From: Acaryochloridaceae cyanobacterium VAR_48_metabat_390
Lineage (GTDB): Bacteria > Cyanobacteriota > Cyanobacteriia > Thermosynechococcales > Thermosynechococcaceae
Reading direction: 5' to 3'
Assembly: GCA_031422435.1 (NCBI GenBank)
Contig: JANPLU010000128.1
Span: 32,001-96,000 of the forward strand
DNA: 64,000 nt
Shown: piece by piece, positions 2,493 through 38,515 of the stretch
Layout: each line of letters begins with the position of its first letter
Position numbering within the stretch: position 1 is the stretch's first letter
Made by a program: the position numbers and the translations under genes
Notes under the pieces: generated by a model
Told to the model about the DNA's origin: nothing
Database searches by the model: none
What the model saw: only the letters and a program-made list of their open reading frames with translations

Positions 2493-2554
2493 GCGATCGC
2501 CTAGGTGGATGGTTTTAGTGAGTCAATCTCGTATGATATCTTAGGTAAGCGCCT

Positions 2555-2637
2555 GGGGGCGTGGCGGAATGGTAGACGCTACGGACTTAAAATCCGTTGA
2601 CCGTAAGGTCGTATGGGTTCAAGTCCCTTCGCCCCCA
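2555..2637 (+). tRNA. trnL: tRNA-Leu(UAA), intron-less
   Basis: Acceptor stem GGGGGCG/CGCCCCC-A; D-arm GCGGAATGGTAGACGC; anticodon arm ACGGA-CTTAAAA-TCCGT; long variable arm; GGTTCAAGTCC T-arm. Confidence 0.95.
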
Positions 2638-2647
2638 TTTTTAAGCC

Positions 2648-2684
2648 AAAAACGGCTCTTTGTCTAAATCAAAGAGCCGTTTTT
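2648..2684. terminator. Bidirectional hairpin terminator between the tRNA and the convergent HAD gene
   Basis: AAAACGGCTCTTTG-N8-CAAAGAGCCGTTTTT. Confidence 0.7.
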
Positions 2685-3443
2685 TCCAAGTAGACAGCGC
2701 ACCATCTCACAAAAGCCTTCTACTTCTGGCTGAGTGGTGACGTATTTAGGCTGATGCTGAAGGCGATCGCCATATTTCAAAATATTTGCGACCCCTACTG
2801 AAACTGGAAAAATGATGGGGTCAAACAGGGCTTCATCATTGGGGCTATCGCCAATCGTTAAAACCTGGGCAGAATGAAGCGTCGGGAAGTGCTGCGCCAA
2901 AACCTGCTGGAGTCCCGATGCCTTATTTTGCAGCGGCGGCTTGATGTGACACTGAACGGTACTGTAGGTGAAGCTCCAGCCTAAGGTTTGGCACTGAAGG
3001 GCGATCGCCTCCAATTCCCCTTCACTCACCCCCTCCACATCAAACGTCCAGTCCGTCAGCCGAAACGCATTATCAGTAGATTCTTTTATGTGGGGATACT
3101 GGTGCTGAATCTGAAGAAACGCCTCTGATAGCCGCTGACGATGTACAGCAAGGGCTGGCACATTGCCCAAAAGCTGGTAAACACCCGTTTTAGAGAAATA
3201 CACCCCGCCATTTTCGGCGATCGCCCCCGCCACAGGCAAATAGCTCCGTAGGGCATCCACCCAACCCGCAGAACGCCCCGTGACCAGCAGCAAAGGGAGA
3301 TTGGCTTGATTAAGCTGGGCGATCGCCTCTAGCAGTCTCGGCGTAAATCGGTCAGCACAGGTTAGCGTCCCGTCTACATCACTCGCAATCAGCCGAATCT
3401 GAGGGGCATCAATGACTAGTCCATCTAGAGAGAGTAGCGGCAT
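2664..3443 (-). CDS. HAD-IIB family hydrolase
   Basis: SDVDGTLT motif I, VTGR motif II, GDSPND motif IV. Confidence 0.88.
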   Translation of the reverse strand: MPLLSLDGLVIDAPQIRLIASDVDGTLTCADRFTPRLLEAIAQLNQANLPLLLVTGRSAGWVDALRSYLPVAGAIAENGGVYFSKTGVYQLLGNVPALAVHRQRLSEAFLQIQHQYPHIKESTDNAFRLTDWTFDVEGVSEGELEAIALQCQTLGWSFTYSTVQCHIKPPLQNKASGLQQVLAQHFPTLHSAQVLTIGDSPNDEALFDPIIFPVSVGVANILKYGDRLQHQPKYVTTQPEVEGFCEMVRCLLGKNGSLI

Positions 3444-20952: not shown

Positions 20953-23900
20953 ATGGTTGTATCTCAGTCCCCCGTCACCGAACTCAGCGAATCCCAGAAG
21001 GCGGTTTTACAAAAGTATTTCATCAATGGCGAATCCACCTGGGAAGCAGTGGTGGAACGGGTGGCTCGGTATGTTGCTAGCGCGGAAGCTACGCCAGAAC
21101 TACGAGACTACTGGCAAGAAAAGTTTCTCTCGGTTTTGATTCCCATGAAGCTGGTGCCGGGTGGCTCCATTTTGGCGAACTGTGACCACGGCACCAGAGG
21201 GTTACTGAACTGCTTTGTGCTTTCGGCTGAGGATAATATCCACGACATTACGAAGCTGGTTTCTGATGCGGTGTTGACCACTAAGTTTAGGGGTGGCGTT
21301 GGCATCAATATTGGTGCGGAAGGTCAAAAGGGCTATATTCGACCCAAAAATGCGCCGTTTCAGGATGGACGGGCGCTAGGTCCCTGTGCGGTTCTCGATA
21401 TGGTGTCTGAGAATTCTAAGAAAATTACGACGGGTAACAAGGCGCGGCGTGGCGCGTTTTTGTTTTCGATGGATTGGAAACATCCTGACATTTTGGAGTT
21501 TATCCAGGCGAAGACGCAATCAACCATTGATGCTGGGGTAACGAAGTCTGTTGTGGAGCAGATGGCGCAGTTGGTGCAAAGCGATTTGCCCCAAGATGAG
21601 AAGAATGAGAAGCTGCAAGCCCTTAATCAGGAGCTATCGACGGCTTGGGTAGAAACACACTTGAGTCCTGACGGGAAACGCGATCGCCGTTGGCACAATG
21701 CAAACATATCTGTACAGCTAGATGACGAATTTTTCACGCGACTGGATGCGGGAGACAGCTTTGCCCATGAGCTATGGGACAAAATTGCCAGCAATGCCCA
21801 CGCGACGGCTGACCCTGGCCTGCTGTTGATCGACAACGCCAAGCGCCGCAGCCCTATCCGAGATTTTGTGACCTGCACCAACCCCTGCGTGACTGCCGAT
21901 ACTTGGGTGCATACAGGCGAAGGGGCACGTCAAGTCAAAGATTTAGTGGGTCAACAGCACAGCACGTACGTGAATGGAGAGCTATTTAGCACCACGCCTG
22001 AGGGCTTCTTTTCGACGGGGATTAAACCTGTGTTGAGCCTCCAAACTCAGGAAGGCTATCGGCTGCGGCTAACGGGGAACCATCGGGTGCTGAAGGTGAC
22101 GGCGCAAACTCGATACCGTCAGTACACCGAATGGGTGGCGGCGGAAGATCTGCAACCAGGCGATCGCCTCATGCTTCACGACCACCGCGTTTTGGAAGGT
22201 TGGGAAGGCACAGGCACCTTTGATGAAGGTTGGCTGCTGGGTAGTCTCGTGGGAGATGGAACCTTTGCGCTCAACAATCAGGGCGAAATGCAGGGCATTC
22301 TCGGGTTCTGGGGTGACGATAATCCTGTAATGATGAGCTACGCCGTGGGTTTACTCAATCAGATTGAAAAGAAAAATAGTCTTGGTCGAGTTTATTCACT
22401 AACGGGTACCCAGGCGATCTCCCAGCAAAAAAGCGTCGTTGCTACAACACGATTGGCGGAACTGGCACAACGATTTGGCATTTGCAGAGGTTCTAAAACC
22501 GTAACCGCTGAAGTTGAACAGGCCAGTTTTGTCTTTTATCAAGGATTTCTACGCGGTCTATTCGATGCAGATGGAAGCGTGCAGGGACATCAAGCAAAAG
22601 GCGTTAGCGTTCGTCTAGCTCAGAGTAATGTAGCAACCCTTGAAGCCGTACAGCGAATGCTGGCACGGGTGGGCATTGCTTCTAAGCTTTACCAAAATCG
22701 GCGGGAGGCTGGCGATCGCCTTCTTCCTGATGGCAATGGCGGTCTTGCACCATACTTCTGTAAAGCACAGCATGAGCTGATCATCGCTGGGGACAATTTG
22801 GGTCGATTTGCGGAAGCGATTGGATTTCAAGATCCTGCCAAGGCAGCAAAACTTGAAACGCTTATGGGTCAATATGTGCGGACTCCTAACCGAGAACGAT
22901 TTTCTGTGACGGTGGCGGCGATCACAGCCGATGGCGTTGAAGAAGTCTATGACTGTACAGTACCTGGGCCACATTGTTTTGATGCTAATGGTTTAGTAGC
23001 GCACAACTGCGGTGAGATCTTTTTGCCGCCAAACAGCGCCTGTAACCTTGCTTCGCTGGTGCTGACAAAGTTTATCCATCGCAATGAGAACGGTGAGATT
23101 GAGATTGACTGGCAAGACTTGGCGCAAACGGTCGCCATTGCCACTCGCTTCCTAGACAACGTCCTGAGCGTGGCAGAATTTGCTACCCCAGACCAAAAAC
23201 ACAACGTGCGGAACGTATTCCGGCAGTTGGGACTGGGCATTATGGGCTGGGCCGATTACCTCAAACAGGCGCATATTGCCTACGACTCCGCGCAGCATTT
23301 GGATGAGATTGATCGCTGGGGCGGTTGGATTGCGAACTATGCCTATCGTGCTTCGGAAGCGCTAGCGGCTGAGAAGGGAGCCTGTGGCGTGTGGCCTCAA
23401 ATACAGGATTTACGCACAGGCAATATTTTTGAGCGCTGGCTTGACAGCGAAGGTAACGAGTACAACGGAGAGCAGGCGCTCAATTCTAATCGCCAAGATT
23501 TGACCCAAGTACCGCGCCGTAACTCTACAGTTTTGTCTATCGCGCCAACGGGCAGTATTGCTCAGCTTGCGGCTTGTTCTTGGGCGTTTGAGCCAGATTT
23601 TGGGCTGACAATGTGGAAGCAGGTGTTTGTGGATGCTTCTAAAAATGAGCAAAACTGGATTCAAATCTTGAACCCATACCTCGAAGCCCTAAACCTTCCA
23701 GAAGCGGATGCCGAAATTGTGAAGCGCACGGGTTCTCTGAAGGGAACTGATTTTGCAAAGCAGCACCCTGATATTACGGCGGCGTTTAAGATTGCGCGGG
23801 AGGTGCCCCCAGGCTGGCATATCTTAGTGCAGTCTAAATGGCAGGACTGGATTGATTCTTCTATTTCTAAGACGATTAATTTGCCCAGTCATGCCACGGT

Positions 23901-24027
23901 GGATGAAATTAAGCAGATTTACCGTCTGGCGGCGAAGGCAGGCTTGAAGGGCGTAACGATTTATCGTTCTGGCACGTTGGAGTCTGAGCCGATTAAGGTG
24001 GGCGATGCGGAGAAATCTGGGAGTTGA
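20953..24027 (+). CDS. nrdJ: Class II (B12-dependent) ribonucleotide reductase large chain, intein-containing
   Basis: LNCFV, RGGVG, RRGA, TNP/CGE active site split by an intein, CNLASL, SIAPTGS, SSISKTINLP, KGVTIYR. Confidence 0.92.
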   Translation: MVVSQSPVTELSESQKAVLQKYFINGESTWEAVVERVARYVASAEATPELRDYWQEKFLSVLIPMKLVPGGSILANCDHGTRGLLNCFVLSAEDNIHDITKLVSDAVLTTKFRGGVGINIGAEGQKGYIRPKNAPFQDGRALGPCAVLDMVSENSKKITTGNKARRGAFLFSMDWKHPDILEFIQAKTQSTIDAGVTKSVVEQMAQLVQSDLPQDEKNEKLQALNQELSTAWVETHLSPDGKRDRRWHNANISVQLDDEFFTRLDAGDSFAHELWDKIASNAHATADPGLLLIDNAKRRSPIRDFVTCTNPCVTADTWVHTGEGARQVKDLVGQQHSTYVNGELFSTTPEGFFSTGIKPVLSLQTQEGYRLRLTGNHRVLKVTAQTRYRQYTEWVAAEDLQPGDRLMLHDHRVLEGWEGTGTFDEGWLLGSLVGDGTFALNNQGEMQGILGFWGDDNPVMMSYAVGLLNQIEKKNSLGRVYSLTGTQAISQQKSVVATTRLAELAQRFGICRGSKTVTAEVEQASFVFYQGFLRGLFDADGSVQGHQAKGVSVRLAQSNVATLEAVQRMLARVGIASKLYQNRREAGDRLLPDGNGGLAPYFCKAQHELIIAGDNLGRFAEAIGFQDPAKAAKLETLMGQYVRTPNRERFSVTVAAITADGVEEVYDCTVPGPHCFDANGLVAHNCGEIFLPPNSACNLASLVLTKFIHRNENGEIEIDWQDLAQTVAIATRFLDNVLSVAEFATPDQKHNVRNVFRQLGLGIMGWADYLKQAHIAYDSAQHLDEIDRWGGWIANYAYRASEALAAEKGACGVWPQIQDLRTGNIFERWLDSEGNEYNGEQALNSNRQDLTQVPRRNSTVLSIAPTGSIAQLAACSWAFEPDFGLTMWKQVFVDASKNEQNWIQILNPYLEALNLPEADAEIVKRTGSLKGTDFAKQHPDITAAFKIAREVPPGWHILVQSKWQDWIDSSISKTINLPSHATVDEIKQIYRLAAKAGLKGVTIYRSGTLESEPIKVGDAEKSGS
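21886..23007 (+). mobile_element. 374-aa intein with LAGLIDADG homing endonuclease
   Basis: Starts CVTADT after NP; block B LTGNHRV; WLLGSLVGDG and FLRGLFDADG motifs; ends VYDCTV..ANGLVAHN before the catalytic C-G-E. Confidence 0.95.
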
Positions 24028-24290: not shown

Positions 24291-25175
24291 ATGGCAAGTA
24301 CACAGGCTTTATTGACCCTAGTAGATTCTTTCCCTGAAGCGTTTTTTGACCCAGAGGGGGCGCAGGCTAGCGTTAGCAGCGCAACGCAAGGGAGCCAGCA
24401 CCAAGAAGCAGCTCGCATTCAGACGCTTTTAGATTTAGCGACGGAATTTCCTGAAGCGTTTTCAGACCCAGAGGCACCTGTGGCAACATCGGCTGTAGTG
24501 GCAGATGCTCCTGCACCGGAGGTTCAGCCTGTAGTGGAAGCAGCCGCAGCTCCAACCGTAGCGACAAGTTTACCTGTTGGATACGAATTCTCGCTCAACC
24601 GCACAATTTCTACATTTACTTGGGGCAATATTGAGGCGCACTTGAGCTATTCGACGGCAGGGCTAGGGTCGCTGTGGCTGGTGGCAGGCAAGTCGGGGAC
24701 GGAGATTCAGTCGCTGTGTGAGGCAATCTGTCGGTTGACGAATTTGCTGTTGACTTATCAGGTGCCTGTTACAGAAATTGTGCGACAGTTGCGCGGCATT
24801 CGCGGGGCGGATTCTGAAGGGCTTGGCCCCCATCGGGTGTTGGGGCTGGCGGATCTGATTGGGAAGGTGTTGCAGGAGGCTCCGGCGACGTTGACGGTTG
24901 GGGCTGCTGCTCCGGTGGCGGGGGCACGGGCTGTGACGGCAGCGGCGACTGTGCTGGAACCTGCGAAGGTTGAGGCTGTGATGCCTTTAAGCGATTCTCA
25001 GAATGGCAATTCTGTTGTGAAGTCTGGTAGCGAGTTGTTATCGCCTTCATTACTCGATTTATCGGAGAATAATCATCGGATGGGGCTTTGTGCTGAGTGT
25101 GGCTCTGAGTTACAGGCAATGAATGGTTGTTCGGGTGGGGCTTGTCTGGTATGTGGTTTTAGTAGCTGTTCATAA
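24291..25175 (+). CDS. NrdJb-like (TSCPD domain) second chain of split class II RNR
   Basis: GKSG..EAICRL..LL..V..EIVRQLRGIRG TSCPD pattern; C-terminal CAECG..GC..CLVCGFSSCS; follows nrdJ. Confidence 0.85.
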   Translation: MASTQALLTLVDSFPEAFFDPEGAQASVSSATQGSQHQEAARIQTLLDLATEFPEAFSDPEAPVATSAVVADAPAPEVQPVVEAAAAPTVATSLPVGYEFSLNRTISTFTWGNIEAHLSYSTAGLGSLWLVAGKSGTEIQSLCEAICRLTNLLLTYQVPVTEIVRQLRGIRGADSEGLGPHRVLGLADLIGKVLQEAPATLTVGAAAPVAGARAVTAAATVLEPAKVEAVMPLSDSQNGNSVVKSGSELLSPSLLDLSENNHRMGLCAECGSELQAMNGCSGGACLVCGFSSCS

Positions 25176-25859
25176 GTGCTGGTCTAATACTTCATCTAAT
25201 CTGTTTTTAAACGCAGTTAAGCTAGGCATGTCGGTAATTCGACCAATGTCTATATTGCCTTGATCAATTAGGTCATTCAGCAAATGACTTGTGCCTGGTG
25301 TTTCAAGACATTGTTCTAGCTGACCTTTTAATGAATTAGGGGAAGCATCATTACCTGATTCATCTTCCAGTTGAACACAATTTTGATATTGATTACGCAA
25401 GGCACAAAGAATCCAAGCCTCGGATTTTGGTTTTGGAATCATTGGAACACCATTAGAAACTCCTTCGGCCTCAAAACCATCTAGCATGGATTGCTTTTTT
25501 TCGTTCCATTCTCCTCTATTGGAGCTTGCCGTGCCATCAGCATCCCTAAATAAAACCAGGATGACTGGAGTTCCATCTTCATTACTTTTTGTCTTTGCCA
25601 AAATGGCTAAAGCTCTTGCATTATTATAATAATAGCCAGTTTCTATCTTCCGCTTTTTCCCCTTTCTAGAAAGTGGCTTAATATGTTGTTTTGCTACTTC
25701 AGCAAGTCTTTGTTTGTTGACAATAGTATAATGGCCTAAATCAATGAGAGAATAACTGCTGCGTCTAGCAATCCAGTTATCTATCAACTTTGCCATAGGG
25801 CCAATTGCATCATCAATGCCTATGTCAGATGCCCCCTCTCCACTTAGCAATAAAAACAT
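25170..25859 (-). CDS. Hypothetical protein with TOPRIM-like motifs (ATPase partner)
   Basis: LLLSGEGASD N-terminus, LFRDAD, SEAWIL; AT-rich; 16 bp downstream of the ATPase. Confidence 0.6.
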   Translation of the reverse strand: MFLLLSGEGASDIGIDDAIGPMAKLIDNWIARRSSYSLIDLGHYTIVNKQRLAEVAKQHIKPLSRKGKKRKIETGYYYNNARALAILAKTKSNEDGTPVILVLFRDADGTASSNRGEWNEKKQSMLDGFEAEGVSNGVPMIPKPKSEAWILCALRNQYQNCVQLEDESGNDASPNSLKGQLEQCLETPGTSHLLNDLIDQGNIDIGRITDMPSLTAFKNRLDEVLDQHL

Positions 25860-25875
25860 ATTTAAGGATGAATAA

Positions 25876-27042
25876 TTAACTTGATTTTCGTAGCATGGAA
25901 ATCTCCTTAAAAAGTTGACTTAGAATAGTATCTTCATAAACTTCTCCAGGCCCCATAACAGTTAACTTTTCACGCATAGAAGGAATATCAAAAAGACGGA
26001 TAGCTTGTGTTGCTCCATTTTCTCCTTTATATAAATAGACAACACCTTCAATTGCAACCTCATCTTCTAGATAGTTTAAGACCATTGGGCTATGAGTGGT
26101 TACAAGAACTTGTGGAGAAGCTTGCACTAAGCTGTCCACAAGAAACTCAACTAACTCTGGATTAATACCGTTCTCTATTTCATCAAGTAGCAAAAAACTT
26201 TGCTCTTTAGACAGTTGAGCAAATACTGCCAGCATACGAAGAAATCCATCAGCAACATGCCGTGCTTCTGTTTTTAATAGAGTCCCTTCAAATTGCTCTT
26301 GAACTATAAGTTGCTTCCATCCAGAACGCAAGACGGATGTATCAAGTAGCCTGAGTTGTGGATAGAGTCCAGACATTTTTTTCTGAATAACTTCTCGCCG
26401 ATCTTCCCCTACTTCATGTAAAAATGCTGACAGCCTCTCACCACCTAAGCCTAGACTATTCTCTGCATCTCTAGTACGTTGCCTTAACAATTCAGGAGCC
26501 AAAAGATCTAGTGAATGTAAATCTTCAAAGAATTTTTTGATTTCAAGAATTTCTTTAGTTAACTTAGATTCTTTGTACCCTGACAATAATGATCCTTGAT
26601 ATTCAAATTCAATAACTCCAGATGAGCTGCGTACACGTTCTTGGTCTTGCTCAGCTAAAGAACGAATTACATACTTTCCATCTTCTACTTTTAGAATTAA
26701 ATTCTTATTCCAATCTACTCGCTCGAAGGTGCAACGTAATGTTTGCCGATTAAATCTTGCAGTCCATTTAATCTCCAATTCATTATCATGAAGGAGTAAA
26801 ATCTCAAATTCAATATTATTTCTTGGAGTTAATTTTGAGTTGATATCAGATGCTTCCCACTGTCTTCTCTTCAACCATTTATCTAAATCACCTTTAACCT
26901 GTTGAGACAGAAAATCAAAAAATTGTAATACCGTTGACTTGCCTGAACCATTTAGCCCAACTAAACAGTTAAATTTAGATAATGGCAATTCAAAGTTCAC
27001 TAAGGATTTGAAGTTATCAACTTTTATGTTTTTGATTCTCAT
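25876..27042 (-). CDS. ABC-type AAA ATPase (AAA_21/AbiEii-like)
   Basis: IKVDNFKSL, GLNGSGKST Walker A, ADGFLR signature-like, LLLDEIENGINP Walker B, TTHSP. Confidence 0.88.
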   Translation of the reverse strand: MRIKNIKVDNFKSLVNFELPLSKFNCLVGLNGSGKSTVLQFFDFLSQQVKGDLDKWLKRRQWEASDINSKLTPRNNIEFEILLLHDNELEIKWTARFNRQTLRCTFERVDWNKNLILKVEDGKYVIRSLAEQDQERVRSSSGVIEFEYQGSLLSGYKESKLTKEILEIKKFFEDLHSLDLLAPELLRQRTRDAENSLGLGGERLSAFLHEVGEDRREVIQKKMSGLYPQLRLLDTSVLRSGWKQLIVQEQFEGTLLKTEARHVADGFLRMLAVFAQLSKEQSFLLLDEIENGINPELVEFLVDSLVQASPQVLVTTHSPMVLNYLEDEVAIEGVVYLYKGENGATQAIRLFDIPSMREKLTVMGPGEVYEDTILSQLFKEISMLRKSS

Positions 27043-27357
27043 ATCTGTAATTTCTAATACTTGCTGCCCACAGATCACACGAAATTATATAAAGTAATTC
27101 TGTAGTCAATCGCAGAAAATTTTTTCGTTGTGCTTACTCTAGAGGCAAGCTTGAACATGTCCATTTTTTAGATCTGAAAATTCTCTACAACTTTAAAGAC
27201 ACTAACATTTTCTGCGAACAACTTCAAAACATTGTTCATCCCAATTCTCATCCCTCAAATATAAGGGTAATCCATCCAACGTGCAAAATCATGACTCAAC
27301 CCATATAATCCATTGTTGGAATAGTCCTGATCGCCATGCTTGAGGTGGTTTCGGTGT

Positions 27358-27397
27358 GATCGCCTTGCCCAAGATTTTGCTTGAGCGGGGCGATCGC
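27358..27397 (+). repeat. 40-bp HIP1-bounded hairpin repeat, copy 1
   Basis: GATCGCCTTGCCCAAGATTTTGCTTGAGCGGGGCGATCGC. Confidence 0.92.
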
Positions 27398-27462
27398 TGT
27401 GTGTGTTGGTAGTTTGAGGGAGATCGTTTAAACAAGTATTATGAGGGCTGTGGGCGATCGCA

Positions 27463-27780
27463 TCACTCAACAACCGTCGCTGTCCTTTTAGTAGTAGTCG
27501 CTAAAACTTCTAAAATCTTTGGAGCTAAAGGCTTTAAATCCGCCAAACGATTAGAGAACGCATGCAAAACAATAACTGCAATCCCAAACTGCGGTAAATT
27601 CTGTTGAAATGATAAATTCCGATCAACCGTAATAAAAACATCAAACTCCACCTCGGCAAGCGCGAGGAGTTGACCATTTTTAATTTCAGCCCATCCTATC
27701 TGCGGGACAGTTTTTACCTCATAGCCAATAAACTCTTTGGCCAACCTACGATCAATACATTCATCCAAAAGTAGCCTCAC
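27463..27780 (-). CDS. DUF5615 PIN-like toxin (cassette 1)
   Basis: GTG start, MRLLLDECID..GW..IKNGQLL..FITVDRN. Confidence 0.85.
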   Translation of the reverse strand: MRLLLDECIDRRLAKEFIGYEVKTVPQIGWAEIKNGQLLALAEVEFDVFITVDRNLSFQQNLPQFGIAVIVLHAFSNRLADLKPLAPKILEVLATTTKRTATVVE

Positions 27781-27781
27781 C

Positions 27782-28000
27782 TCAAGCCCCCACCCCAATA
27801 AGCTGTTCTCCAGCCTCTTCCAACAAAGCAATGACTTGTTCCCTAGTCACAGTAGGGAATCCGTCTAAAAAGTCATCAATCGACTCTCCTGCTTTGAGGT
27901 AATCCATCAACGTCTGTACCGGAACTCTCGTTCCAGTGAAAACTGGCGTACCACCCATCACGTCAGCAGATACGCTAATCATCAAAGAATCTTTCAGCAT
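27782..28000 (-). CDS. DUF433 antitoxin (cassette 1)
   Basis: MGGTPVFTGTRVPV..L..G.SIDDFLDGFPTV. Confidence 0.9.
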   Translation of the reverse strand: MLKDSLMISVSADVMGGTPVFTGTRVPVQTLMDYLKAGESIDDFLDGFPTVTREQVIALLEEAGEQLIGVGA

Positions 28001-28082
28001 TAGTCTTTGACCTCTAGCCTTTATACTGACTAGTTTATCAAGGGTTGAGCAGGGCGGTCGCACTTCTAGCAAACGGAGAAGC

Positions 28083-28122
28083 GATCACCTTGCCTAAGAT
28101 TTTGCTGACGTGGGGCAATCTC
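28083..28122 (+). repeat. 40-bp HIP1-bounded hairpin repeat, copy 2 (degenerate)
   Basis: GATCACCTTGCCTAAGATTTTGCTGACGTGGGGCAATCTC. Confidence 0.85.
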
Positions 28123-28208
28123 CCTATGTCTTGTTCGTTTGAAGGCGATCGCATAGTCCAAGATGGCGATCATCCATAATAGATAAAGCACCATTGCATC
28201 AAACGGTC

Positions 28209-28454
28209 ATGGACTGGAAACTTCATATTCATTCAGACCCCAATATTTTACTTGGCAAGCCCACCGTCAAAGGGACGCGGCTGTCTGTTGAATTTATACT
28301 GGGCTTATTTGCTGAAGGGTGGACAGAACAACAAATTCTAGAAAACTACCCTACCCTAAATGCGATCGCCCTTCAAGCCATTTTTGCATTTGCCGCAGAG
28401 TGCCTCAAAGAAGACGTATTTTATACATCACTCCTGACCGCTGAGGCAGGCTAG
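28209..28454 (+). CDS. DUF433 antitoxin (cassette 2)
   Basis: PNILLGKPTVKGTRLSVEFIL..GWTEQQILENYPTL. Confidence 0.9.
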   Translation: MDWKLHIHSDPNILLGKPTVKGTRLSVEFILGLFAEGWTEQQILENYPTLNAIALQAIFAFAAECLKEDVFYTSLLTAEAG

Positions 28455-28456
28455 CA

Positions 28457-28814
28457 ATGCGGCTTCTAGCAAACGAAAATTTTCCCTTGCTCAGCGTCAA
28501 GTTAATACGGCAAACAGGCTATGACATTGCTTCAATTACTAGGGATTCTCCAGGGATAGAAGATATAGAGGTTTTGACCCGTGCGGTCAACGAACAAAGA
28601 GATTATCCTGACCTTTGACCGTGATTACGGCGAACTCATCTATCGCTTACGAAAGCCATCGCCAAGAGGAGTGATCTATCTTCGGTTTCGTCCCCGTTCC
28701 CCAGAAGAACCAGCCGCAATATGGCTAAACCTCTCGCAAACTGAGGGACTACAATTCGAGGGACGGTTTACGGTTGTCGAGCGCGATCAGATTCGCCAGC
28801 GTCCTCTTCCGTAG
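28457..28814 (+). pseudogene. DUF5615 PIN-like toxin (cassette 2), frameshifted
   Basis: ATG at 28457 gives MRLLANENFP..EVLTRAVNEQR; one extra base near 28601 breaks the frame before IILTFDRDYGELIY, which continues to 28814. Confidence 0.82.
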
Positions 28815-28863
28815 TTTGATGAACTCATTAATATGAGATCGCACTTCTGGCAAGTAGCAAGGC

Positions 28864-28903
28864 GATCGCCTTGCCCAAGATTTTGCTTGAGCGGGGCGAT
28901 CGC
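28864..28903 (+). repeat. 40-bp HIP1-bounded hairpin repeat, copy 3
   Basis: Identical to copy 1. Confidence 0.92.
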
Positions 28904-28944
28904 CTTATCAAATCCTTACCTGAAGCAAGCAAACGACAGAGCAT

Positions 28945-29289
28945 TTAGAGAGAACTATCATTAATCTCTATAATAATTTCGCCCTCCTGCAATTTGCCCA
29001 ATGCATCCGTCAAAGTTTTTGAAATAAGTTGATGTAAATTACGATTCGTCACGTTGCCACAGGTCAGCCAAATTATTTGAGGCGGCATACCTAAGCGGCA
29101 GACTAGATCGATGAAGTCACTGTCCTTCGTCATAATTACAGCATTAGCAGCTCGTGCCGCCTCAAAAATTTCAATATCCTTTGCGTCTCGTAAGCCAAGA
29201 TCTTTAAGAGAAAACGCTTCCACCTCAAACTTACTATTCAACCAACTTGCCAAAGTTGGAGGTAATTGAGCATCAACCCAGATCTTCAT
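28945..29289 (-). CDS. DUF5615 PIN-like toxin (cassette 3)
   Basis: MKIWVDAQLPP..LRDAKDIEIF..IMTKDSDF..IIWLTCGN; ATGA overlap with the antitoxin. Confidence 0.88.
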   Translation of the reverse strand: MKIWVDAQLPPTLASWLNSKFEVEAFSLKDLGLRDAKDIEIFEAARAANAVIMTKDSDFIDLVCRLGMPPQIIWLTCGNVTNRNLHQLISKTLTDALGKLQEGEIIIEINDSSL

Positions 29290-29510
29290 GCAGTCAATCG
29301 CAAAAAATCTGTCCGTCGCGCCGCAAACAGAAGACAAGCCTGTATATCTTCATTCTCAAGATCGGGAAAATCTTCCAAAATCTCAGAGAAACTAACGTTT
29401 TCTGCCAACATCTCTAAAATGTCGCTCACCCGAATTCTCATCCCTCTAATACAAGGACGACCACCACACTGACCGGGAACCTGAGTAATACGAGACAATA
29501 GATTATTCAT
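29286..29510 (-). CDS. DUF433 antitoxin (cassette 3)
   Basis: RIT..PGQCGGRPCIRGMRIRVSDIL..EILEDFPDLE.EDIQACL. Confidence 0.92.
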   Translation of the reverse strand: MNNLLSRITQVPGQCGGRPCIRGMRIRVSDILEMLAENVSFSEILEDFPDLENEDIQACLLFAARRTDFLRLTA

Positions 29511-29583
29511 TCGTGTCTCAAGTTAACACCTTCGTATCATACTGCGTCAATGGCGATCACCCTGTGTGAAGTGCTTCGGGTTT

Positions 29584-29623
29584 GATCGCCTTGCCCAAGA
29601 TTTTGCTTGCGTGGGGCGATCGC
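29584..29623 (+). repeat. 40-bp HIP1-bounded hairpin repeat, copy 4
   Basis: GATCGCCTTGCCCAAGATTTTGCTTGCGTGGGGCGATCGC, 2 mismatches to copy 1. Confidence 0.92.
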
Positions 29624-29635
29624 ATTCCCTTGAGT

Positions 29636-30970
29636 CTAGAGTGTGAACGTCGCTAGATCTTCATCCACCGTAGCGTTTTGGGCGATCAACGATTTTGTAG
29701 CTGGTGTTTTTGCCATGCTCACCCCAGACTCTACTCTAATATCCGTTTGGGAAATCAGCTCTGACACTTGTGCTTGAGGGTTCTGGTCAAGGACAGCTAA
29801 CAGGTTTACAAACGCCGTAATAGTATTGCGAGGGGTACGAAAATAAGCATCTCCAATGCGCTGGGAGCAGTGAGCCATAAAGTTCTGGATGCCTCCATCT
29901 GAGATGAGATAGTCTTTGACCTCCCCAGCAGCATAGACGTAACGAATCTTACCCAGCAGCACATAAAGATCCTCTGGGCTGAGATTGGTTAATCGTAAGA
30001 CTGGACCGCTGTAGTCTACCAGTCCATTCGCTGCAAAGGTATTTACTGCCAACCTTGACTGTAGCGCCGGGTAGCTATAAAGCCCTCGGCGAGTATCGGT
30101 CAAAAACTCAGGAGTGCCGCCAAGCAGTACGCCCAGCCCCACAGCGGTTCCTTGCAGCACATCATTCAAAATTCGCAAGATTTGTTCGTAGTTGCTTTTG
30201 CGCGCTTGGACGTTAGACAGCTTAAATAAATTGACCAATTCATCCCAGCAGATTAGTAAGCCTCCGTAGCCAGACAGCCGCACCAACTGCGCCATCAGCT
30301 TGAGCTGATCGTATACATTCTCATCGTCTACGATGGTGCGAACGCCCAAGGCCTGCCGCGCCTCAAGCTTTGAACTAAACTCCCCCCGCAGCCATCGGAC
30401 AGCACTTGTTTTAAGGGTTTCATCGCTGGCATCATGACCCCGCCAGTAGGCTGCAATCACTTCGGCAAAATCATAACCGCCTACCATTTCTGAGAGATGC
30501 GCTAGCCGCTCCCGAATAACGGCTTCGGGACTAAGACTGCGATCGCGGCCTTCACTAATGGCTGAGGTCACAAAGCGCTCAACCACACTTGCCAAGGCAC
30601 CCCCCTCTGGCTTAGTGCGAGTGGAGAGATTCCGCATGAGTTCGGTGTAGAGCGATCGCGCTTGGCCTCCGGTGGCGTGGAGTCGGCGGTCAGGAGTAAG
30701 ATCTGCATGAACCGTCACCAGCTTTTCCTGAAGAGCAATAGAGCGCACCAAAGCCAGAAAAAAAGTTTTACCAGAGCCATACTCGCCAATAACAAACCGA
30801 ATAGTAGAGCCGCCCTCCGCAATCCGCTTCACATCTTGAATGAGCGCCTCTAGCTCGCGCGCTCGCCCCACCTGAATCAGCGGCAAACCCGTACGAGGCA
30901 CCACCCCAGCTCGCAGAGACTGAATCACCGCATCGCGCTCTTTCACCTTAATTACGGGGATTTTAGTCAC
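29636..30970 (-). CDS. DUF2791 (BrxD/SngB-like) P-loop ATPase
   Basis: SLRAGVVP..GL, GEYGSGKTF, WDELVN, GLYSYPALQSRL. Confidence 0.85.
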   Translation of the reverse strand: MTKIPVIKVKERDAVIQSLRAGVVPRTGLPLIQVGRARELEALIQDVKRIAEGGSTIRFVIGEYGSGKTFFLALVRSIALQEKLVTVHADLTPDRRLHATGGQARSLYTELMRNLSTRTKPEGGALASVVERFVTSAISEGRDRSLSPEAVIRERLAHLSEMVGGYDFAEVIAAYWRGHDASDETLKTSAVRWLRGEFSSKLEARQALGVRTIVDDENVYDQLKLMAQLVRLSGYGGLLICWDELVNLFKLSNVQARKSNYEQILRILNDVLQGTAVGLGVLLGGTPEFLTDTRRGLYSYPALQSRLAVNTFAANGLVDYSGPVLRLTNLSPEDLYVLLGKIRYVYAAGEVKDYLISDGGIQNFMAHCSQRIGDAYFRTPRNTITAFVNLLAVLDQNPQAQVSELISQTDIRVESGVSMAKTPATKSLIAQNATVDEDLATFTL

Positions 30971-31701
30971 GACAGCAGCTCCTGCAAAATATCTAGATTC
31001 ACTTCAAGGGGGTCTTCTCCCTCCGTTAAGGCTTCGTCACAACGCTCAAAGGCGGCTTCATTAATCAGCTCTAGGGCACCATCTAACAGAAGGTCTAACC
31101 GTTGAGCAACCCCCATAAGATCTGCGCGGCTCCATAGAGTTTTCTGTGTCAGGGTTTTCAGAAATGTGGCATGGGCAGCATCTAAGCTTAGAGTGGTTTC
31201 AGGAGATGAAGGGATAGAAGGTGCCTCAATGAAAACAGACTGAAGGAGCTGAGTGGCTTCTGCTGATTCACGCTCCTTGGCTTGAACAAGATCTAAGTTC
31301 AGGCTAAAGGGTAGCGATACCTCTAATTTAGATTCAGAAAAAGGCATTGAATCGCCAGCAGGTTCAGCCGTAATGTCAACTTTAGGCGTTCGTTTTTTTC
31401 GGGCACGCTTTTGGGTTAGCTCAGCAACCTGGGCGACGAGATCAGCATTATCAGCCTGGAGCTGAACCAGCTCAATCGCGCGATCGGTGGCAATCTGGTT
31501 GAGTTCAGCGACCCGCGTTTCTAGAGCGGTGCGTTGAGTGAGAGCAGCCGTTAGCTCCCGCTGAACTTTGTCCAACTGCTGTTGAAGCTGCTGTGTATTA
31601 TTTTGGGACTGTTTGACCGTAATCTCAACACGCTGGGCTTGCGTGCGCCACCAATAGAGACCTATTCCCAACGCTCCACCAATCCAAATATCTCGCAGCA
31701 T
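30967..31701 (-). CDS. TerB-C domain protein with TM anchor and coiled coil (short SngA-like)
   Basis: C-terminal LDAAH..FL..L....WSR..L..A....LLLDGALE.INE.AF TerB-C pattern; overlaps the ATPase start. Confidence 0.75.
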   Translation of the reverse strand: MLRDIWIGGALGIGLYWWRTQAQRVEITVKQSQNNTQQLQQQLDKVQRELTAALTQRTALETRVAELNQIATDRAIELVQLQADNADLVAQVAELTQKRARKKRTPKVDITAEPAGDSMPFSESKLEVSLPFSLNLDLVQAKERESAEATQLLQSVFIEAPSIPSSPETTLSLDAAHATFLKTLTQKTLWSRADLMGVAQRLDLLLDGALELINEAAFERCDEALTEGEDPLEVNLDILQELLS

Positions 31702-34293: not shown

Positions 34294-37200
34294 TTAAGCG
34301 CAGGTTTGCCAGAGCGCATCAATGGCTGAACCTAGGTTAGGAAAATCTGAATGCTGCTCAATCCACTGGACTATTATTGGTTGATTCTCAGTGCTAGATT
34401 TACCTAACTTTCCTAATGCCATAGCTGCTCTAAACCGCACAAATGAGTATTCATCCTTGAGGAAGCCTAACAGTCCCTGTAATACAATTTCTGAGCGATC
34501 ACCCAGTTTCAAAAATGCGGTGACGGCATCAGCACGCATATCGGCCTTTGGATCCTCTAGGAGGTTGAGAAGTTCGTTAACCACAGCTTCAGAGCGATCT
34601 CCCAAGTTCACCAATGTCTCTGCGGCCCCATAACAGACATATGAATTTTCATCTCTAAGCAGTGCGAGGAGTTTTGAGTAAATCTGATTTAAGAGACCGT
34701 CCAAGTGCCCTAATGCATCTGCTACCTCGCGAGGCACATATGAGTTTCCATTTCTATACAGTCTAATAAGAGCTTGGCGCACAGCTTCGGAGATATCACC
34801 TAATTCCATTAGTTTCTTAACTGCTCGAACACAAGTGTATGGGTGTGTATCCTTAAGTAGGTCAGTAAGAGCTTGGCGCACAGCTTCAGAGGTATCACCT
34901 AATTCCACTAGCTTCTCTGCTGCTCGAATACGCACCTCTGAGTTTTCATCCTTAAGTAGAATGAGAAGAGCTTGGATTAAAACTCTAGAGCAGTCATCCA
35001 AGAATACTAATGCATCTATTGCTAGATGGCGAACTGCTGGGTCTTTATTCTTAAGTAGTGTCCTGAACGCTTGTTGGAGAGAATCTTTAGTCCAATCACC
35101 GATGAAACTCAAAGCATATGCTGCAAGACAACAGACTTCGTAATCTTCATCCTTAAGCAGTTCAATGAAAGTCTGGCACATAGCTTCGGAGGTATCAGCC
35201 AATTCCACTAATTTCCTTGCTGCTCGAACACGCACCTCTGAGCTTTTATCCTTAAGAAGGTTAATCAGGATTTCAAGGGCAATCTTTTTTTCTCCCAAAT
35301 TTATTTGAAAATCTAGAAATCTATCTTGATCAATTTGAGCTTTTGAAGCTTTCAAATAGGTTAAGACTTTGACATCAAAAGCAGTTTCCTTAAGCCAACT
35401 GAAATCTCAAAGGTTTCTTTTTTGATCGATCTTCCAATTCGTTTTTCATCGTCTGTTTCTAGAGTAACAAGCCGTTGTAATATTTCTGAAACAGTTCCTA
35501 GTGATGCGGGCGCTAATTTTTCTGGGTCTTCGGTCAAACAATGCCCTGCAAAAAGCAAATCTCGATGCAGCCATTTCTCATACTGACTATTCCGTCGCAA
35601 AATAACCTCGATAGCCTTTGCTGCTTTTTTCCCCTGTAACTGACTAACAAGCAGCAAAATTACTTCTCTCCAATGAGAATTGTGTAAATGGGTTTGAATT
35701 GCCTCGTAGATCAGTTCTGAATTATCTTCGTACTCTGCTTGGTTCAGAATTGCTTCTGCCGTCAAATATTCCTGAAACGTCTTATGCACAAAAGCATAAC
35801 GACCCCGCCCATACTCATTCAACAAACCCGACCGATCTCGAATAAACGCCACAAATCGCTCCGCCTCCTCCTTTGCCTGATGGAGCTTCACCTGCGGGTA
35901 TTCCTGCCGAATAATTAGGCTTAACTGGGTAAGCAACTCCCCTTCTTCAATCACTGTGCCGCTTTCCGTTGTCTGGGTTTCGTACTGGGTATGTATCCAG
36001 TAAGCCAACTGACTCATCACCCGCCGCAAATCATCATCTCGATCTAGATGCTTAAATTCCCCATAGGTTTCTCCCTTCCCCTTACGATCCCAACTTTTCA
36101 GCAGCGTATCCACCGCACGGTCATAAAGCTTATATCGCCGCTTCGGCAACGTATCCTGATAGCGATGAATCAACGCCACCATCGTCAACAGCAGTGGGTT
36201 CCTCACCAGATCTTGCAAACGATCTTTACTCTTGAGCGCATCCTGCAAATCCCGAATCATCTCCTGCGCCTCCGCCGCATTTTCGCAGCGGTTTTCATAC
36301 CAATGCTCAATAAACTCCTGAATTTGCGCCTCATTAAATAGCTCTAACTCAAAATGCGGATAGGCATCCGTACGGAAATAATCTCGCCGATAGCCCCAAG
36401 GACGCGACGTAATCACCGCCCAATTATTCTCATGGGCCGCCAAAAAGCAGTTAATCTTTTCCACCAGCGCCGCACGGGTCGAATCTTCCGCCACCTCATC
36501 TAAGCCATCTAGCAACAGCAGCGCCTGTCCCTCCGTCCAATGCTCCAAAAATCCCGTCGGCAAATCCACTTGCAGCGTATTCTCAGCAAAATCTCGCACC
36601 TGATCTAGCAAAGACCGTTCAGGATACTTCGCCCAATCCCGCATATAAACCAAAATCGGCAACCGCTCCACACCTTCCGGCAAGCCAATCTCAGCCCCTT
36701 TCTCCCCAGCCGCCATCACCGCCAAATACCGCATCAGCGTCGTCTTCCCTGTCCCTGGATCGCCCAACACCACCACCCGCTGCCGCGTTGTCGCCCTCAA
36801 TATTTCGTGCGCCAACATCGATCGCCCCCGCTGTTGAGCATGGCGATCGCGCTGTTCTTGCCACAGTTGTGCTTGTCGCTCCGTCAACTGCTCAGGGCGT
36901 TCTGGCAATAACCGCTCAGGACTGAATGCTAATTTTGTAACCTCTTCCGACACATTCGGCACCACAAAAATATCCAGCAGCCGCGCCGCCCGATGATCCT
37001 CACGGGCGCTAACATCAATCCCGACAAACTTCACATCCTCACAGCTCGTAATCAGCCGATCTCGGTATTCCCGCAGCTTGGCACGGTAGCGGATAAACGT
37101 ATTCGTTTGTTCAAAATACGTCTCCACAAAAATCCGCAGCCATTGTACAAGCTGTTCTGGTTCCACGGATTTCATGCGAGGCGTTGCTTTGGCTGCCTGC

Positions 37201-37496
37201 TCAAAGGCAACCCTTAAAACCTCAACATCCGGTTTTTCTGCACCCTTCTGCAACTCTTCTAGACCAATGCCACCACCCAAAAACGCCTGCAAAAACCCTT
37301 CAACCCGATCTTTATCATCTGCATTCAGCGATGGCACCAGTTCAGCTTTTGCTTGAGCTTTATTCAATGTAACTTCAAGCGCTTTTTCAACCTCGCTTTT
37401 GCTGAGTTGCTGGGAAACGCCGCTAATCCCAGCCTCTACAACCCTACGGGCGATCGCCCCTACAATGGCCTTTCCAAACCCTAATTCCCAAACCAT
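34294..37496 (-). pseudogene. NACHT NTPase with C-terminal HEAT repeats, split by a single frameshift near 35403
   Basis: ORF 35361-37496 has GDPGTGKT, LLLDGLDE, NPLLLT, FVHKTFQEYL; ORF 34294-35355 is HEAT repeats; the HEAT frame is open upstream through FSWLKETAFDVKVLTYLK, overlapping the NACHT tail. Confidence 0.7.
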
Positions 37497-37597
37497 CTGC
37501 GATCACTCTCCACCTTCATCCCTCTGTCATTTTAGGTGAGGGAAAATGGCGATCGCAGTTTTACGACTGAAGTAACGGGTTCTTTTGAGCTTGTTTT

Positions 37598-38515
37598 TCA
37601 GGAATGCGATTGCAGCCAGTCATCCAAATCAGCCATCTCAGTAAAATCCAACAGCGCCTCACCCAGTGCTTCAACTTGGGTAACAGATAAAGCTTGAAGT
37701 TGGGACTCCACAGATGAAGTCAACGTCCCAATACGTCGGTTGAGTAGTCGAAGAACAATAGATCTCTCCCCATCTTGCCGCCCACGCTGTAGACCTTGTT
37801 GCAAGCCCTCTTCTAAAGTCTCTTGCCGCCACTTCTCGTAAACCGGAGTCAAATTCATCGCCAAAGCCCTCTCGTCCGTGGTTAAATTCTGCCCTATATT
37901 CAAGCTAATTTGCAACACCGCCAAATGCTCCATCGTTTTACGCTTCATCGAGTGGTCTGACGGTAAAGCCAATAACTCAGAAATCGCCCTTCGCTGCACC
38001 CCATCTCGCCCCATTAATCGTAGCCATAGCGTTGTCTCATCCACCGGAAGCTGATGAATTGCCACCAGCGCCGTGCGAAACTGCGGCGGTAGAAAGTAAA
38101 ATCCCGTAGACCAACTGGGGTCGTATCCTGCACCAAATCCCAGCACCACGCGCTCAGAAACGGTTGGGCTTAAAATCCATAATCGAGGCAAAGCCGATTC
38201 GAGCAAAGATTTTTTCTCTCGTTTCGCCTGCCGCCGAAAGACTTCGGTCAAATCAATCAGCTTGCCAACGCAGCTACTCACATCCTGAAATTGGACAGAG
38301 TTGCGAAACGGTTCAATAACACAGCACTGAACCGCCATGCGACCCAACAATCCCAAGGCAAACAAACCTTCTTGAGCTTCATCATGGGGTGAAAACCACA
38401 GGTCAACCTCACGGGTTTCACTGGTTACTTTACGACTGGTCGTAACCGTCCCCAACGATTCAAGTAATGCTTCAAGATGTTGTTTGGCAAACAGATCGTG
38501 ATGGGTACGAGTCAT
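37598..38515 (-). CDS. DUF4351 / Rpn-like protein
   Basis: HDLFAKQ.L, REVD.WF, IEPFR, TLWLRLMGR; C-terminal LEALGEALLDF..DL..WL (DUF4351). Confidence 0.8.
   Translation of the reverse strand: MTRTHHDLFAKQHLEALLESLGTVTTSRKVTSETREVDLWFSPHDEAQEGLFALGLLGRMAVQCCVIEPFRNSVQFQDVSSCVGKLIDLTEVFRRQAKREKKSLLESALPRLWILSPTVSERVVLGFGAGYDPSWSTGFYFLPPQFRTALVAIHQLPVDETTLWLRLMGRDGVQRRAISELLALPSDHSMKRKTMEHLAVLQISLNIGQNLTTDERALAMNLTPVYEKWRQETLEEGLQQGLQRGRQDGERSIVLRLLNRRIGTLTSSVESQLQALSVTQVEALGEALLDFTEMADLDDWLQSHS

Follow-up and report, generated by a model that had tools for sequence, protein, structure and literature searches.

A stretch of 64,000 nucleotides from Acaryochloridaceae cyanobacterium VAR_48_metabat_390 (contig JANPLU010000128.1, positions 32,001 to 96,000; hereafter the window) contains an array of small toxin-antitoxin (TA) type cassettes that are separated by copies of a 40-nt hairpin repeat, with joints at HIP1 (highly iterated palindrome 1). 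Comparison within the genus shows that the hairpin family is bound to a single locus, occurs genus-wide, is co-oriented throughout and punctuates TA cassettes that are unrelated to each other. The order of the cassettes differs between species, and both the ends of homology and the insertions and deletions (indels) of short linker modules are located at HIP1. The host genus is probably Altericista; we compared ten of its genomes, each a different species (G000 to G009), where G000 is the genome of the window itself (3.70 Mb in 136 contigs, 99.99% complete) with the array at C128:59358-61623. HIP1 is the most abundant short repeat of cyanobacterial genomes and its function is debated (Chi-like recombination versus DNA-uptake signal). 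The locus forms a compact natural record in which HIP1 is found repeatedly, across the genus, at exact cassette joints and at indels of 20-30-nt modules.

Four copies of the hairpin are present on the + strand of the window, namely R1 (27358-27397), R2 (28083-28122), R3 (28864-28903) and R4 (29584-29623), with start-to-start spacings of 725, 781 and 720. R1 and R3 are identical to each other, R4 has two mismatches and R2, with eight mismatches, is decayed. At a tolerance of three mismatches or fewer the 40-mer is matched three times, against 0.00 expected from 100 shuffles. An initial annotation, made by a model from the letters of the window, had listed the same four copies with this spacing and mismatch pattern, and the fold it had drawn coincides with the predicted minimum-free-energy structure (17 pairs, one C/A mismatch and two T-G pairs). 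Folded as DNA the + strand reaches -12.8 kcal/mol (-5.2 +/- 1.75 for shuffles); since the energy of the - strand is similar (-11.5 kcal/mol), neither strand can be assigned to the hairpin on this basis. As RNA the copies reach -28 to -35.5 kcal/mol on the + strand and -22.6 to -33 kcal/mol on the - strand; the z-scores range from -4.4 to -7. Across the copies, 90.3% of the pair cells of the hairpin are paired (33-46% with the partner column slid).

The intervals between these copies hold three pairs of DUF433 and DUF5615 genes, here called p1, p2 and p3, in which each domain scores over its Pfam cut-off (PF04255 with 65.8-86.6 bits, PF18480 with 27.3-90.2 bits). Pairs p1 and p3 are located on the - strand and p2 on the + strand, so that p1 and p3 are inverted relative to the hairpins; the middle pair is opposite in strand to its neighbours while the repeats are co-oriented, as annotated before. 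Cassette p1 (27463-28072) consists of a DUF5615 PIN-like toxin at 27463-27831, with a likely start near 27783, and a DUF433 antitoxin open reading frame (ORF) at 27782-28072, of which 27782-28000 is the likely extent. Its orthologues in G002, G003 and G007 are 83-91% identical at the nucleotide level and have ORFs of 72 aa and 122 aa. In p3 (28945-29510) a DUF5615/PIN_10 toxin at 28945-29337 (likely start 29289) is combined with DUF433 at 29286-29510; orthologues with 92-93% nucleotide identity are present in G004 and G007, and the DUF433 part is also found in G002. Cassette p2 (28194-28814) starts with DUF433 at 28194-28454, followed by a frameshifted DUF5615 toxin that is split into 28457-28618 and 28581-28814. 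The orthologues of p2 in G002 and G004 are 89-90% identical, the toxin of G004 is a single ORF, and contigs of related strains are shorter by one base at 28600. The description of one compact pair per interval is correct with respect to the three pairs, but had missed that the toxin of the second pair is broken. Contigs assembled from the metagenome runs that are the likely source carry two alleles of the p2 toxin over 28551-28685: one equals the window, the other has five substitutions, one base fewer at 28600 and one extra behind 28635.

The three pairs are strongly divergent: alignments of their DUF433 proteins cover 45-62 residues with 14-19 identities, and their DUF5615 toxins can hardly be aligned at all, which is in line with a cassette array instead of a tandem duplication, as had been proposed. 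A fourth, dead cassette was found at 27101-27330 on the - strand. It is a decayed DUF433 remnant resembling pair 3, with stops in all three frames, and is 71-79% identical to that pair (upstream linker included) and 76-79% identical to 29289-29456 (repeat families D2 and D6). By their sequence the DUF433 (COG2442) and DUF5615 pairs are candidate type II TA modules, being adjacent small genes that carry both domains; a PIN-COG2442 pair has been proposed as a TA system of the VapBC type (PMC3834315).

The HIP1-capped 40-mer is in turn the core of mosaic linkers of 70-130 nt. The array of the initial annotation is real, but the dead unit was missed, as was the fact that the repeat is part of these longer linkers. 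The linkers are strings of short modules bounded by HIP1 or by HIP1 with one mismatch: module A is the hairpin, module B a variant hairpin with a different apex, and C, C', D and E are spacers of 18-32 nt. Chimeric A/B hairpins are also present, indicating exchange inside the hairpin module. In the window all modules are annotated on the + strand. The first linker starts with C' at 27329-27357, which has HIP1-like sites as bounds and is the same module as 29553-29583 (84%), and continues with R1, which equals the family consensus (69.7 bits with the covariance model described below), and with modules C and E at 27398-27461, where HIP1 (27454-27461) marks the end and homology of p1 begins directly after it. 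In the second linker, module D (28054-28082) stands behind a degenerate HIP1 and is followed by R2, the decayed copy between divergent promoters (56.2 bits), and by 28123-28175, which comprises a C-like module, a HIP1 at 28145, a truncated A-like module and a degenerate HIP1; here homology of p2 begins directly afterwards. The third linker has module D at 28835-28863 between HIP1-like sites, next to R3, towards which p2 and p3 converge with their 3' ends (76.1 bits; as RNA -35.5 kcal/mol on the + strand and -33 kcal/mol on the - strand). The last one comprises C' at 29553-29583 and R4, the distal end of the array. Sequence before 29636 differs in contigs of related strains.

Within G000 all matches of the 40-mer of at least 24 nt (blastn-short) fall in this array, including 4/4 copies, and the remaining linker modules tested are likewise unique to it (types A, C, C' and D). 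The genome contains 3,856 HIP1 sites; at the 118 close pairs of exact HIP1 no second hairpin family of this kind was found. Allowing three mismatches or fewer, the 40-mer occurs in 6 out of 61 genomes (G000 and five of the nine other species of the genus) and in none of the 51 outside the genus, while G001 has two further copies (4 and 5 mismatches) at the same locus. We also built a covariance model (model R1) from 28 copies and searched it over 48 genomes of the family. It yields 31 matches of at least 44 bits, all in seven of the ten genus genomes and none in the 38 genomes of other genera; 28 of these matches hold by construction; of the three others, which are new, G001 contributes two and G003:C89 one. 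The next-best score is 34.8 bits, on the reverse strand of a true copy, and genomes of other genera reach 32.2 bits at best. An exact 27-nt pattern, searched in one genome each of 185,579 species, is found at five loci on four contigs of three genomes: Altericista sp. CCNU0014 (complete chromosome) and two records of metagenome-assembled genomes. The same pattern has no loci in JGI metagenome contigs, and no match was found in the phage collection. The initial annotation had suggested tracing the 40-mer by BLAST in its own genome and in relatives: it is confined to the locus and, in the seven species that carry it, separates unrelated TA units.

In its genomic setting the array is part of a variable defence island, with the core genes nrdJ and its TSCPD partner upstream and tsf and rpsB downstream. 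The hairpin copies cluster in each genome at distances of 0.45-1.6 kb. All copies on a contig share one strand (8/8 contigs), and the hairpins run in the same direction as TSCPD in each of the five genomes that have both on one contig. G006 and G008 have no hairpin; other small genes or a NERD-domain gene are found behind TSCPD. In the plasmid collection the coding parts of p1 and p3 alone have matches (69-80% identity), on plasmids of other cyanobacterial genera, and the flanks of the two best of these matches contain no hairpin module.

To describe the cargo we typed 89 ORFs from the loci of six relatives, plus 19 more ORFs, with Pfam. At least ten kinds of small TA-type cassettes are found between the hairpins: VapBC-type PIN pairs, PIN_3 with an Unstab_antitox-like partner, ParE pairs (ParDE), HicAB, Gp49/HigB with a HigA-like partner, BrnT (BrnTA), DUF6887/DUF6888 and three kinds of DUF433/DUF5615 pair. 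The 19 complete hairpin-to-hairpin intervals contain mostly a single unit (15 intervals), with two units in three intervals and three units in one. A TA-type component recognised by Pfam is present in 17 of them (counting DUF433/DUF5615 and DUF6887/6888), and the other two have unknown small ORFs alone.

The three cassettes of the window recur in other species at 82-93% nucleotide identity, in another order and in other company (all-against-all blastn). The order is p3-remnant, p1, p2, p3 in G000; p3, p2, HicAB, VapBC, PIN_3 in G004; p3, p1 in G007; VapBC, p1, PIN_3 in G003; and VapBC, DUF6887, PIN_3, ParDE, HigBA in G009. In G002 we observe HigBA, p1, an unknown unit, p2, DUF6888/7 and a second p1 (p1'), then the DUF433 part of p3, ParDE and BrnTA. 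Deletion alone is insufficient to explain these patterns, because ParDE precedes HigBA in G009 but follows it in G002, and p2-p3 in one species stands against p3-p2 in another. A comparison of the locus across relatives, also suggested by the initial annotation, reveals gain, loss, duplication and reordering of cassettes, with breaks in the linkers at HIP1. The two p1 copies of G002 are non-adjacent and 96-97% identical (L020, corresponding to G002:C223, at 1-180 and 2536-3164; L021 at 1-378); no other event in the data looks as recent as this duplication, and the second copy is interrupted by a break in the assembly. For every cassette type seen at least twice the orientation relative to the hairpin is constant (26/26 occurrences). 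Flipping of units at the hairpins, as had been proposed, was thus observed in none of the 26 cases and is rejected.

Orthologous cassettes are homologous exactly up to a HIP1, a limit that is seen on both sides of p2 (three genomes) and to the left of p1 (five copies). Similarly, indels of modules run exactly from HIP1 to HIP1 in an otherwise identical context, with two clean filled/empty pairs: G000 and G007 have module C' to the right of p3, where G004 lacks it, and G003 carries an extra module on the left of p1. For the second p1 copy of G002, hairpin and cassette are fused directly. Among high-scoring segment pairs (HSPs) of at least 250 nt, 53 out of 121 ends are no more than 10 nt away from a HIP1-like site, compared with 15% for random array positions (HSPs in the flanks are included, and the ends are not independent). 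Exact HIP1 is found six times in the 570 nt of the window linkers (10.5 per kb), compared to 1.03 per kb in the whole window.

We give an even chance to the reading that this is an array of TA cassettes in which the hairpin and HIP1 of the linkers are the joints for gain, loss, duplication and reordering by general recombination. RecA-type exchange would then take place between linkers of 40-70 nt and short-homology joining at HIP1. The exchange partners might be chromosome copies or naturally transformed DNA, the uptake of which HIP1 is reported to favour, and a dedicated recombinase would not be needed. The stable hairpin, in turn, may block read-through or protect 3' ends and could in this way insulate neighbouring operons. 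Homologous HIP1 sites have been reported to increase integration up to 7-fold, or more than 100-fold if methylated, an effect called 'reminiscent of Chi' (bioRxiv 10.1101/2024.09.10.611283), and earlier work associates HIP1 with excision as well as with site-specific recombination (Robinson 1997 and Akiyama 1998, cited in PMC4390886). What these cases have in common with the array is that HIP1 is a place of DNA joining or deletion. They concern laboratory constructs or single deletions, though, whereas the array is a natural, genus-wide record of repeated joining from HIP1 to HIP1.

A number of observations weigh against general recombination at these joints. Covariation of the stem is weak: three pairs have changed on both sides versus 1.5 in shuffles, a number that is reached by 48 out of 500 shuffles. 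The mean number of mismatches is 4.34 within and 4.39 between genomes (permutation p = 0.46), hence this comparison gives no sign of ongoing homogenisation or concerted evolution of the copies. The apex of the hairpin (loop plus upper stem; 27370-27383 of the window and the corresponding columns in every A-type copy) has 4.3% variable cells against 10.8% for the mid-stem; judged from the alignment, this would be predicted by sequence-specific recognition and not by a homology patch or a purely structural hairpin. As to a role in transcription, no T-run follows the hairpin, a terminator scan gives five sites versus 2.3 +/- 1.5 in shuffles and so does not rise above them, and the hairpins persist between divergent promoters in four of five such contexts. 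Furthermore, the core TSCPD flank is 85-91% identical between species and the cassettes 82-93%, i.e. they are similarly diverged, and therefore the events need not be recent; given this core-like divergence the cassette pattern could largely be old, with differential loss. Finally, no recombination event has been directly seen. The active capture and excision that the initial annotation had in mind finds no counterpart in the contigs of four metagenome runs, which merely break at the repeats and contain no joints between them, although this result is weak as contigs drop rare variants.

The promoter scan of the array is also not above shuffles (6 versus 4.1 +/- 2.1). Judged by eye, a C or A module might provide the -35 box for a -10 at the cassette start, in VapBC-type and p2 cassettes. 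Rfam 15 has no family for the hairpin: the sole match, SNORD75, has 18.1 bits (E = 0.35) and thus stays below the gathering score of 50.

An alternative that we hold to be improbable is a dedicated site-specific cassette system resembling integrons or dif modules. In this scenario the hairpin, either through its inverted arms and asymmetric 6-nt centre or as a folded single strand, would be the site for a recombinase encoded elsewhere (IntI or another enzyme, possibly a HIP1-directed nickase), and cassettes would be excised as circles and reinserted. Strand exchange needs identity of the spacer at the centre of a recombination site, and the centre is indeed the most conserved part of the hairpin. 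The layout of gene units between direct repeats, with all sites co-oriented, points in the same direction, as does the constant orientation of cassette to site (26/26), as if both move together. Integron integrases are also present in the genus: G000 contains a full-length integron integrase on a 2.6-kb contig (G000:C129:1213-2154; 484.5 bits with TIGR02249 at a cut-off of 265), and intact intI is present in 8/10 genus genomes (452-485 bits), mostly at contig ends. Integrons occur in cyanobacteria, chromosomal integrons typically carry TA modules, and attC clusters without an integron integrase (CALIN) have been described (Cury et al. 2016, PMC4889954). The array shares with these that small gene units alternate with a co-oriented hairpin repeat, that the cargo is of TA type, that site homogeneity is high and that an integrase is found elsewhere in the genome without adjoining the array (which a CALIN does not require). 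Nevertheless, a regex test of 27000-29800 returns no pairs of the R''/R' boxes (RYYYAAC/GTTRRRY), and the 40-mer contains neither GTT nor AAC, so the initial annotation was right about the missing attC boxes. It had noted that no recombinase gene is in the window; none is located at the array and contig C128 contains no tyrosine recombinase (PF00589), while the true integron integrase of G000, being on another contig, was beyond what it could see. attC sites range from 57 to 141 nt in size and are bulged, whereas the hairpin is 40 nt long with one mismatch, is capped by HIP1 and located in mosaic linkers, and separates operons of two genes that may have either orientation. None of the seven intI contigs contains a hairpin copy with up to 11 mismatches, and the canonical-looking attC beside intI in G003, with inverted GTATAAC...GTTATAC ends, is unlike the hairpin. 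In the complete genome of G009 a six-copy array at 3.50 Mb is accompanied by mere fragments of intI, at 0.75 and 1.52 Mb. No XerD is above the cut-off in G000 and G009 (TIGR02225, best score 101.8 bits versus 329.6), and no Y1 transposase is found in G000 (PF01797, 0 matches). The mosaicism of HIP1 modules is also unlike the product of one fixed crossover point, and neither circles nor joints are present among the contigs of the four runs. We therefore reject identity with an integron or CALIN (no attC boxes, no neighbouring intI or attI, and a hairpin unlike the canonical-looking attC of the genus itself). The dif modules of Acinetobacter plasmids come close in other respects, being discrete accessory units, often TA, that are shuffled between short imperfect palindromes with a 6-nt centre (PMC13141974, PMC6449649). 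Those modules depend on XerC/XerD and are plasmid-borne, while the present array is chromosomal, in genomes where XerD stays below the cut-off. Moreover, pdif sites alternate in orientation, whereas here all sites are direct (8/8 contigs), and for these reasons dif modules of this type were rejected too.

Two further explanations, which both have a poor chance in our estimation, leave the repeat without a role in moving cassettes. Selfish mini-insertions that target HIP1 might have accumulated in a pre-existing TA island, thereby marking the joints. Such a case is known from SDR5, a 21-nt small dispersed repeat (SDR) that is set precisely inside HIP1, between nt 3 and 4, in heterocystous cyanobacteria (PMC4390886; see also PMC5861425 and PMC13756078). 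The modules of 18-32 nt indeed have a HIP1 at either end, and identical contexts exist both as filled and as empty sites. This presence or absence of very short modules exactly at HIP1 is the sole feature in common with SDR5, as the array has several module types, at one locus, tied to TA cassettes and in a non-heterocystous genus, whereas SDR5 is dispersed and known only from Nostocaceae; PMC5861425 states that no SDR-like repeat was found outside this family. A mini-element that is mobile should occupy many of the 3,856 HIP1 sites of G000, but modules A, C, C' and D are present at this locus alone, the 118 close HIP1 pairs yield no other hairpin family, and strong model matches are restricted to one locus per genome. 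It would also leave the regular spacing (one unit in 15/19 intervals) and the constant orientation unexplained. Likewise, a miniature transposable element with inverted repeats (MITE) was rejected, as copies are not dispersed and the sole flanking repeat is HIP1 itself. Alternatively, and with just as little probability, the hairpin might be a passive regulatory element, i.e. a two-way transcription barrier or a 3'-end stabiliser like REP sequences (repetitive extragenic palindromes), inherited from an ancestral array and kept by selection while cassettes changed order for unrelated reasons. This would agree with the very stable RNA hairpin on both strands, with copies being positioned 42-66 nt past toxin stop codons or between convergent units, and with the similar divergence of cassettes and core flank. 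It would also fit that R2, the sole decayed copy of the window, is located between divergent promoters and that copies in such contexts deviate most from the consensus (3-10 mismatches versus mostly 0-3, with small n and kin that are not independent). On the other hand, the lack of a T-run, terminator-like sites not above shuffles, a loop that is more conserved than the stem and the weak covariation do not fit. Moreover, the same 40-mer beside ten unrelated TA families requires spread of the repeat or insertion of cassettes next to it, breakpoints and module indels are situated on HIP1, and homologous TA pairs exist on plasmids of other genera without the hairpin. REPs are dispersed in hundreds of copies and have a cognate transposase (RAYT, REP-associated tyrosine transposase). 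With REPs and bacterial interspersed mosaic elements (BIMEs) of enterobacteria the array shares intergenic GC-rich hairpins that are combined with other short motifs in mosaic linkers and that are candidate 3'-end stabilisers and sites of plasticity; it differs by having 4-7 copies at one locus and no Y1 transposase in G000, for which the REP/RAYT and IS200/IS605 (insertion sequence) readings were rejected (four copies in G000). REPs are mentioned in PMC5861425, and a REP has been described at the variable ccdO157 TA locus (PMC3184786).

Returning to general recombination at the linkers as the preferred reading, the array works like a cassette array and fails the defining tests of integrons, dif modules, REP/RAYT and MITEs. 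The initial annotation had named three findings that would speak against its own reading of an integron-like array, namely a scattered repeat, identical gene order in relatives and a known MITE or SDR model that explains everything; none of these was observed. A search of the literature on HIP1 with TA, cassette, integron, SDR or tandem arrays, and on Altericista, did not reveal a description of such an array. It might be speculated that the hairpin is the true site of a new, integrase-independent cassette system, in which some enzyme that recognises the conserved apex or cuts HIP1 moves the TA cassettes. We consider this unlikely; if true, HIP1 would be a built-in cassette-exchange signal of cyanobacterial genomes. 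More generally, integron-like stocking of defence and TA cassettes can coexist, separately, with true integrons in the same genomes. With an array on the complete chromosome of a named strain, Altericista sp. CCNU0014, the idea is testable.

Analogous arrays were searched for in other genera, using four DUF5615 clusters from three genomes. Two clusters have no direct repeat of at least 28 nt, and the cluster at G035:C23 has just one repeat of about 150 nt in two copies. The cluster at G013:C129 is a canonical-looking integron array. There, four copies of a ~350-nt repeat with a spacing of 1.0-1.4 kb are present at about 2817-6423 of L048 (G013:C129:10001-16821), containing GTTAGAC...GCTTAAC boxes beside DUF5615 genes; these look like a canonical integron with TA cassettes. 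In G000 an inverted GTATAAC...GTTATAC pair of 86 nt was noticed at G000:C124:873-958.

On the proximal side the array is flanked by PDC-M25 B and A, a candidate defence pair according to PADLOC (25170-27078, - strand), consisting of a 229-aa protein (B, 291 bits) and an AAA_21 ATPase (A, 519.5 bits); in G001, too, the array is preceded by this pair. The distal flank (29636-31701, - strand) contains SngB, a BrxD-like ATPase (583.5 bits), and a C-terminal fragment of SngA, a 244-aa protein that covers positions 327-524 of the 528-position SngA profile. By these matches the distal flank resembles a truncated Shango system. An NACHT NTPase with an NNH2 N-terminal domain and a DUF4351 protein are located immediately past tsf and rpsB, at 35361-38515 on the - strand, and therefore further defence-type genes flank the core genes. 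The nrdJ gene (class II ribonucleotide reductase; 20953-24027, + strand) contains an intein with a LAGLIDADG homing-endonuclease domain, which is absent from the G002 orthologue (672 aa) and present in that of G009.

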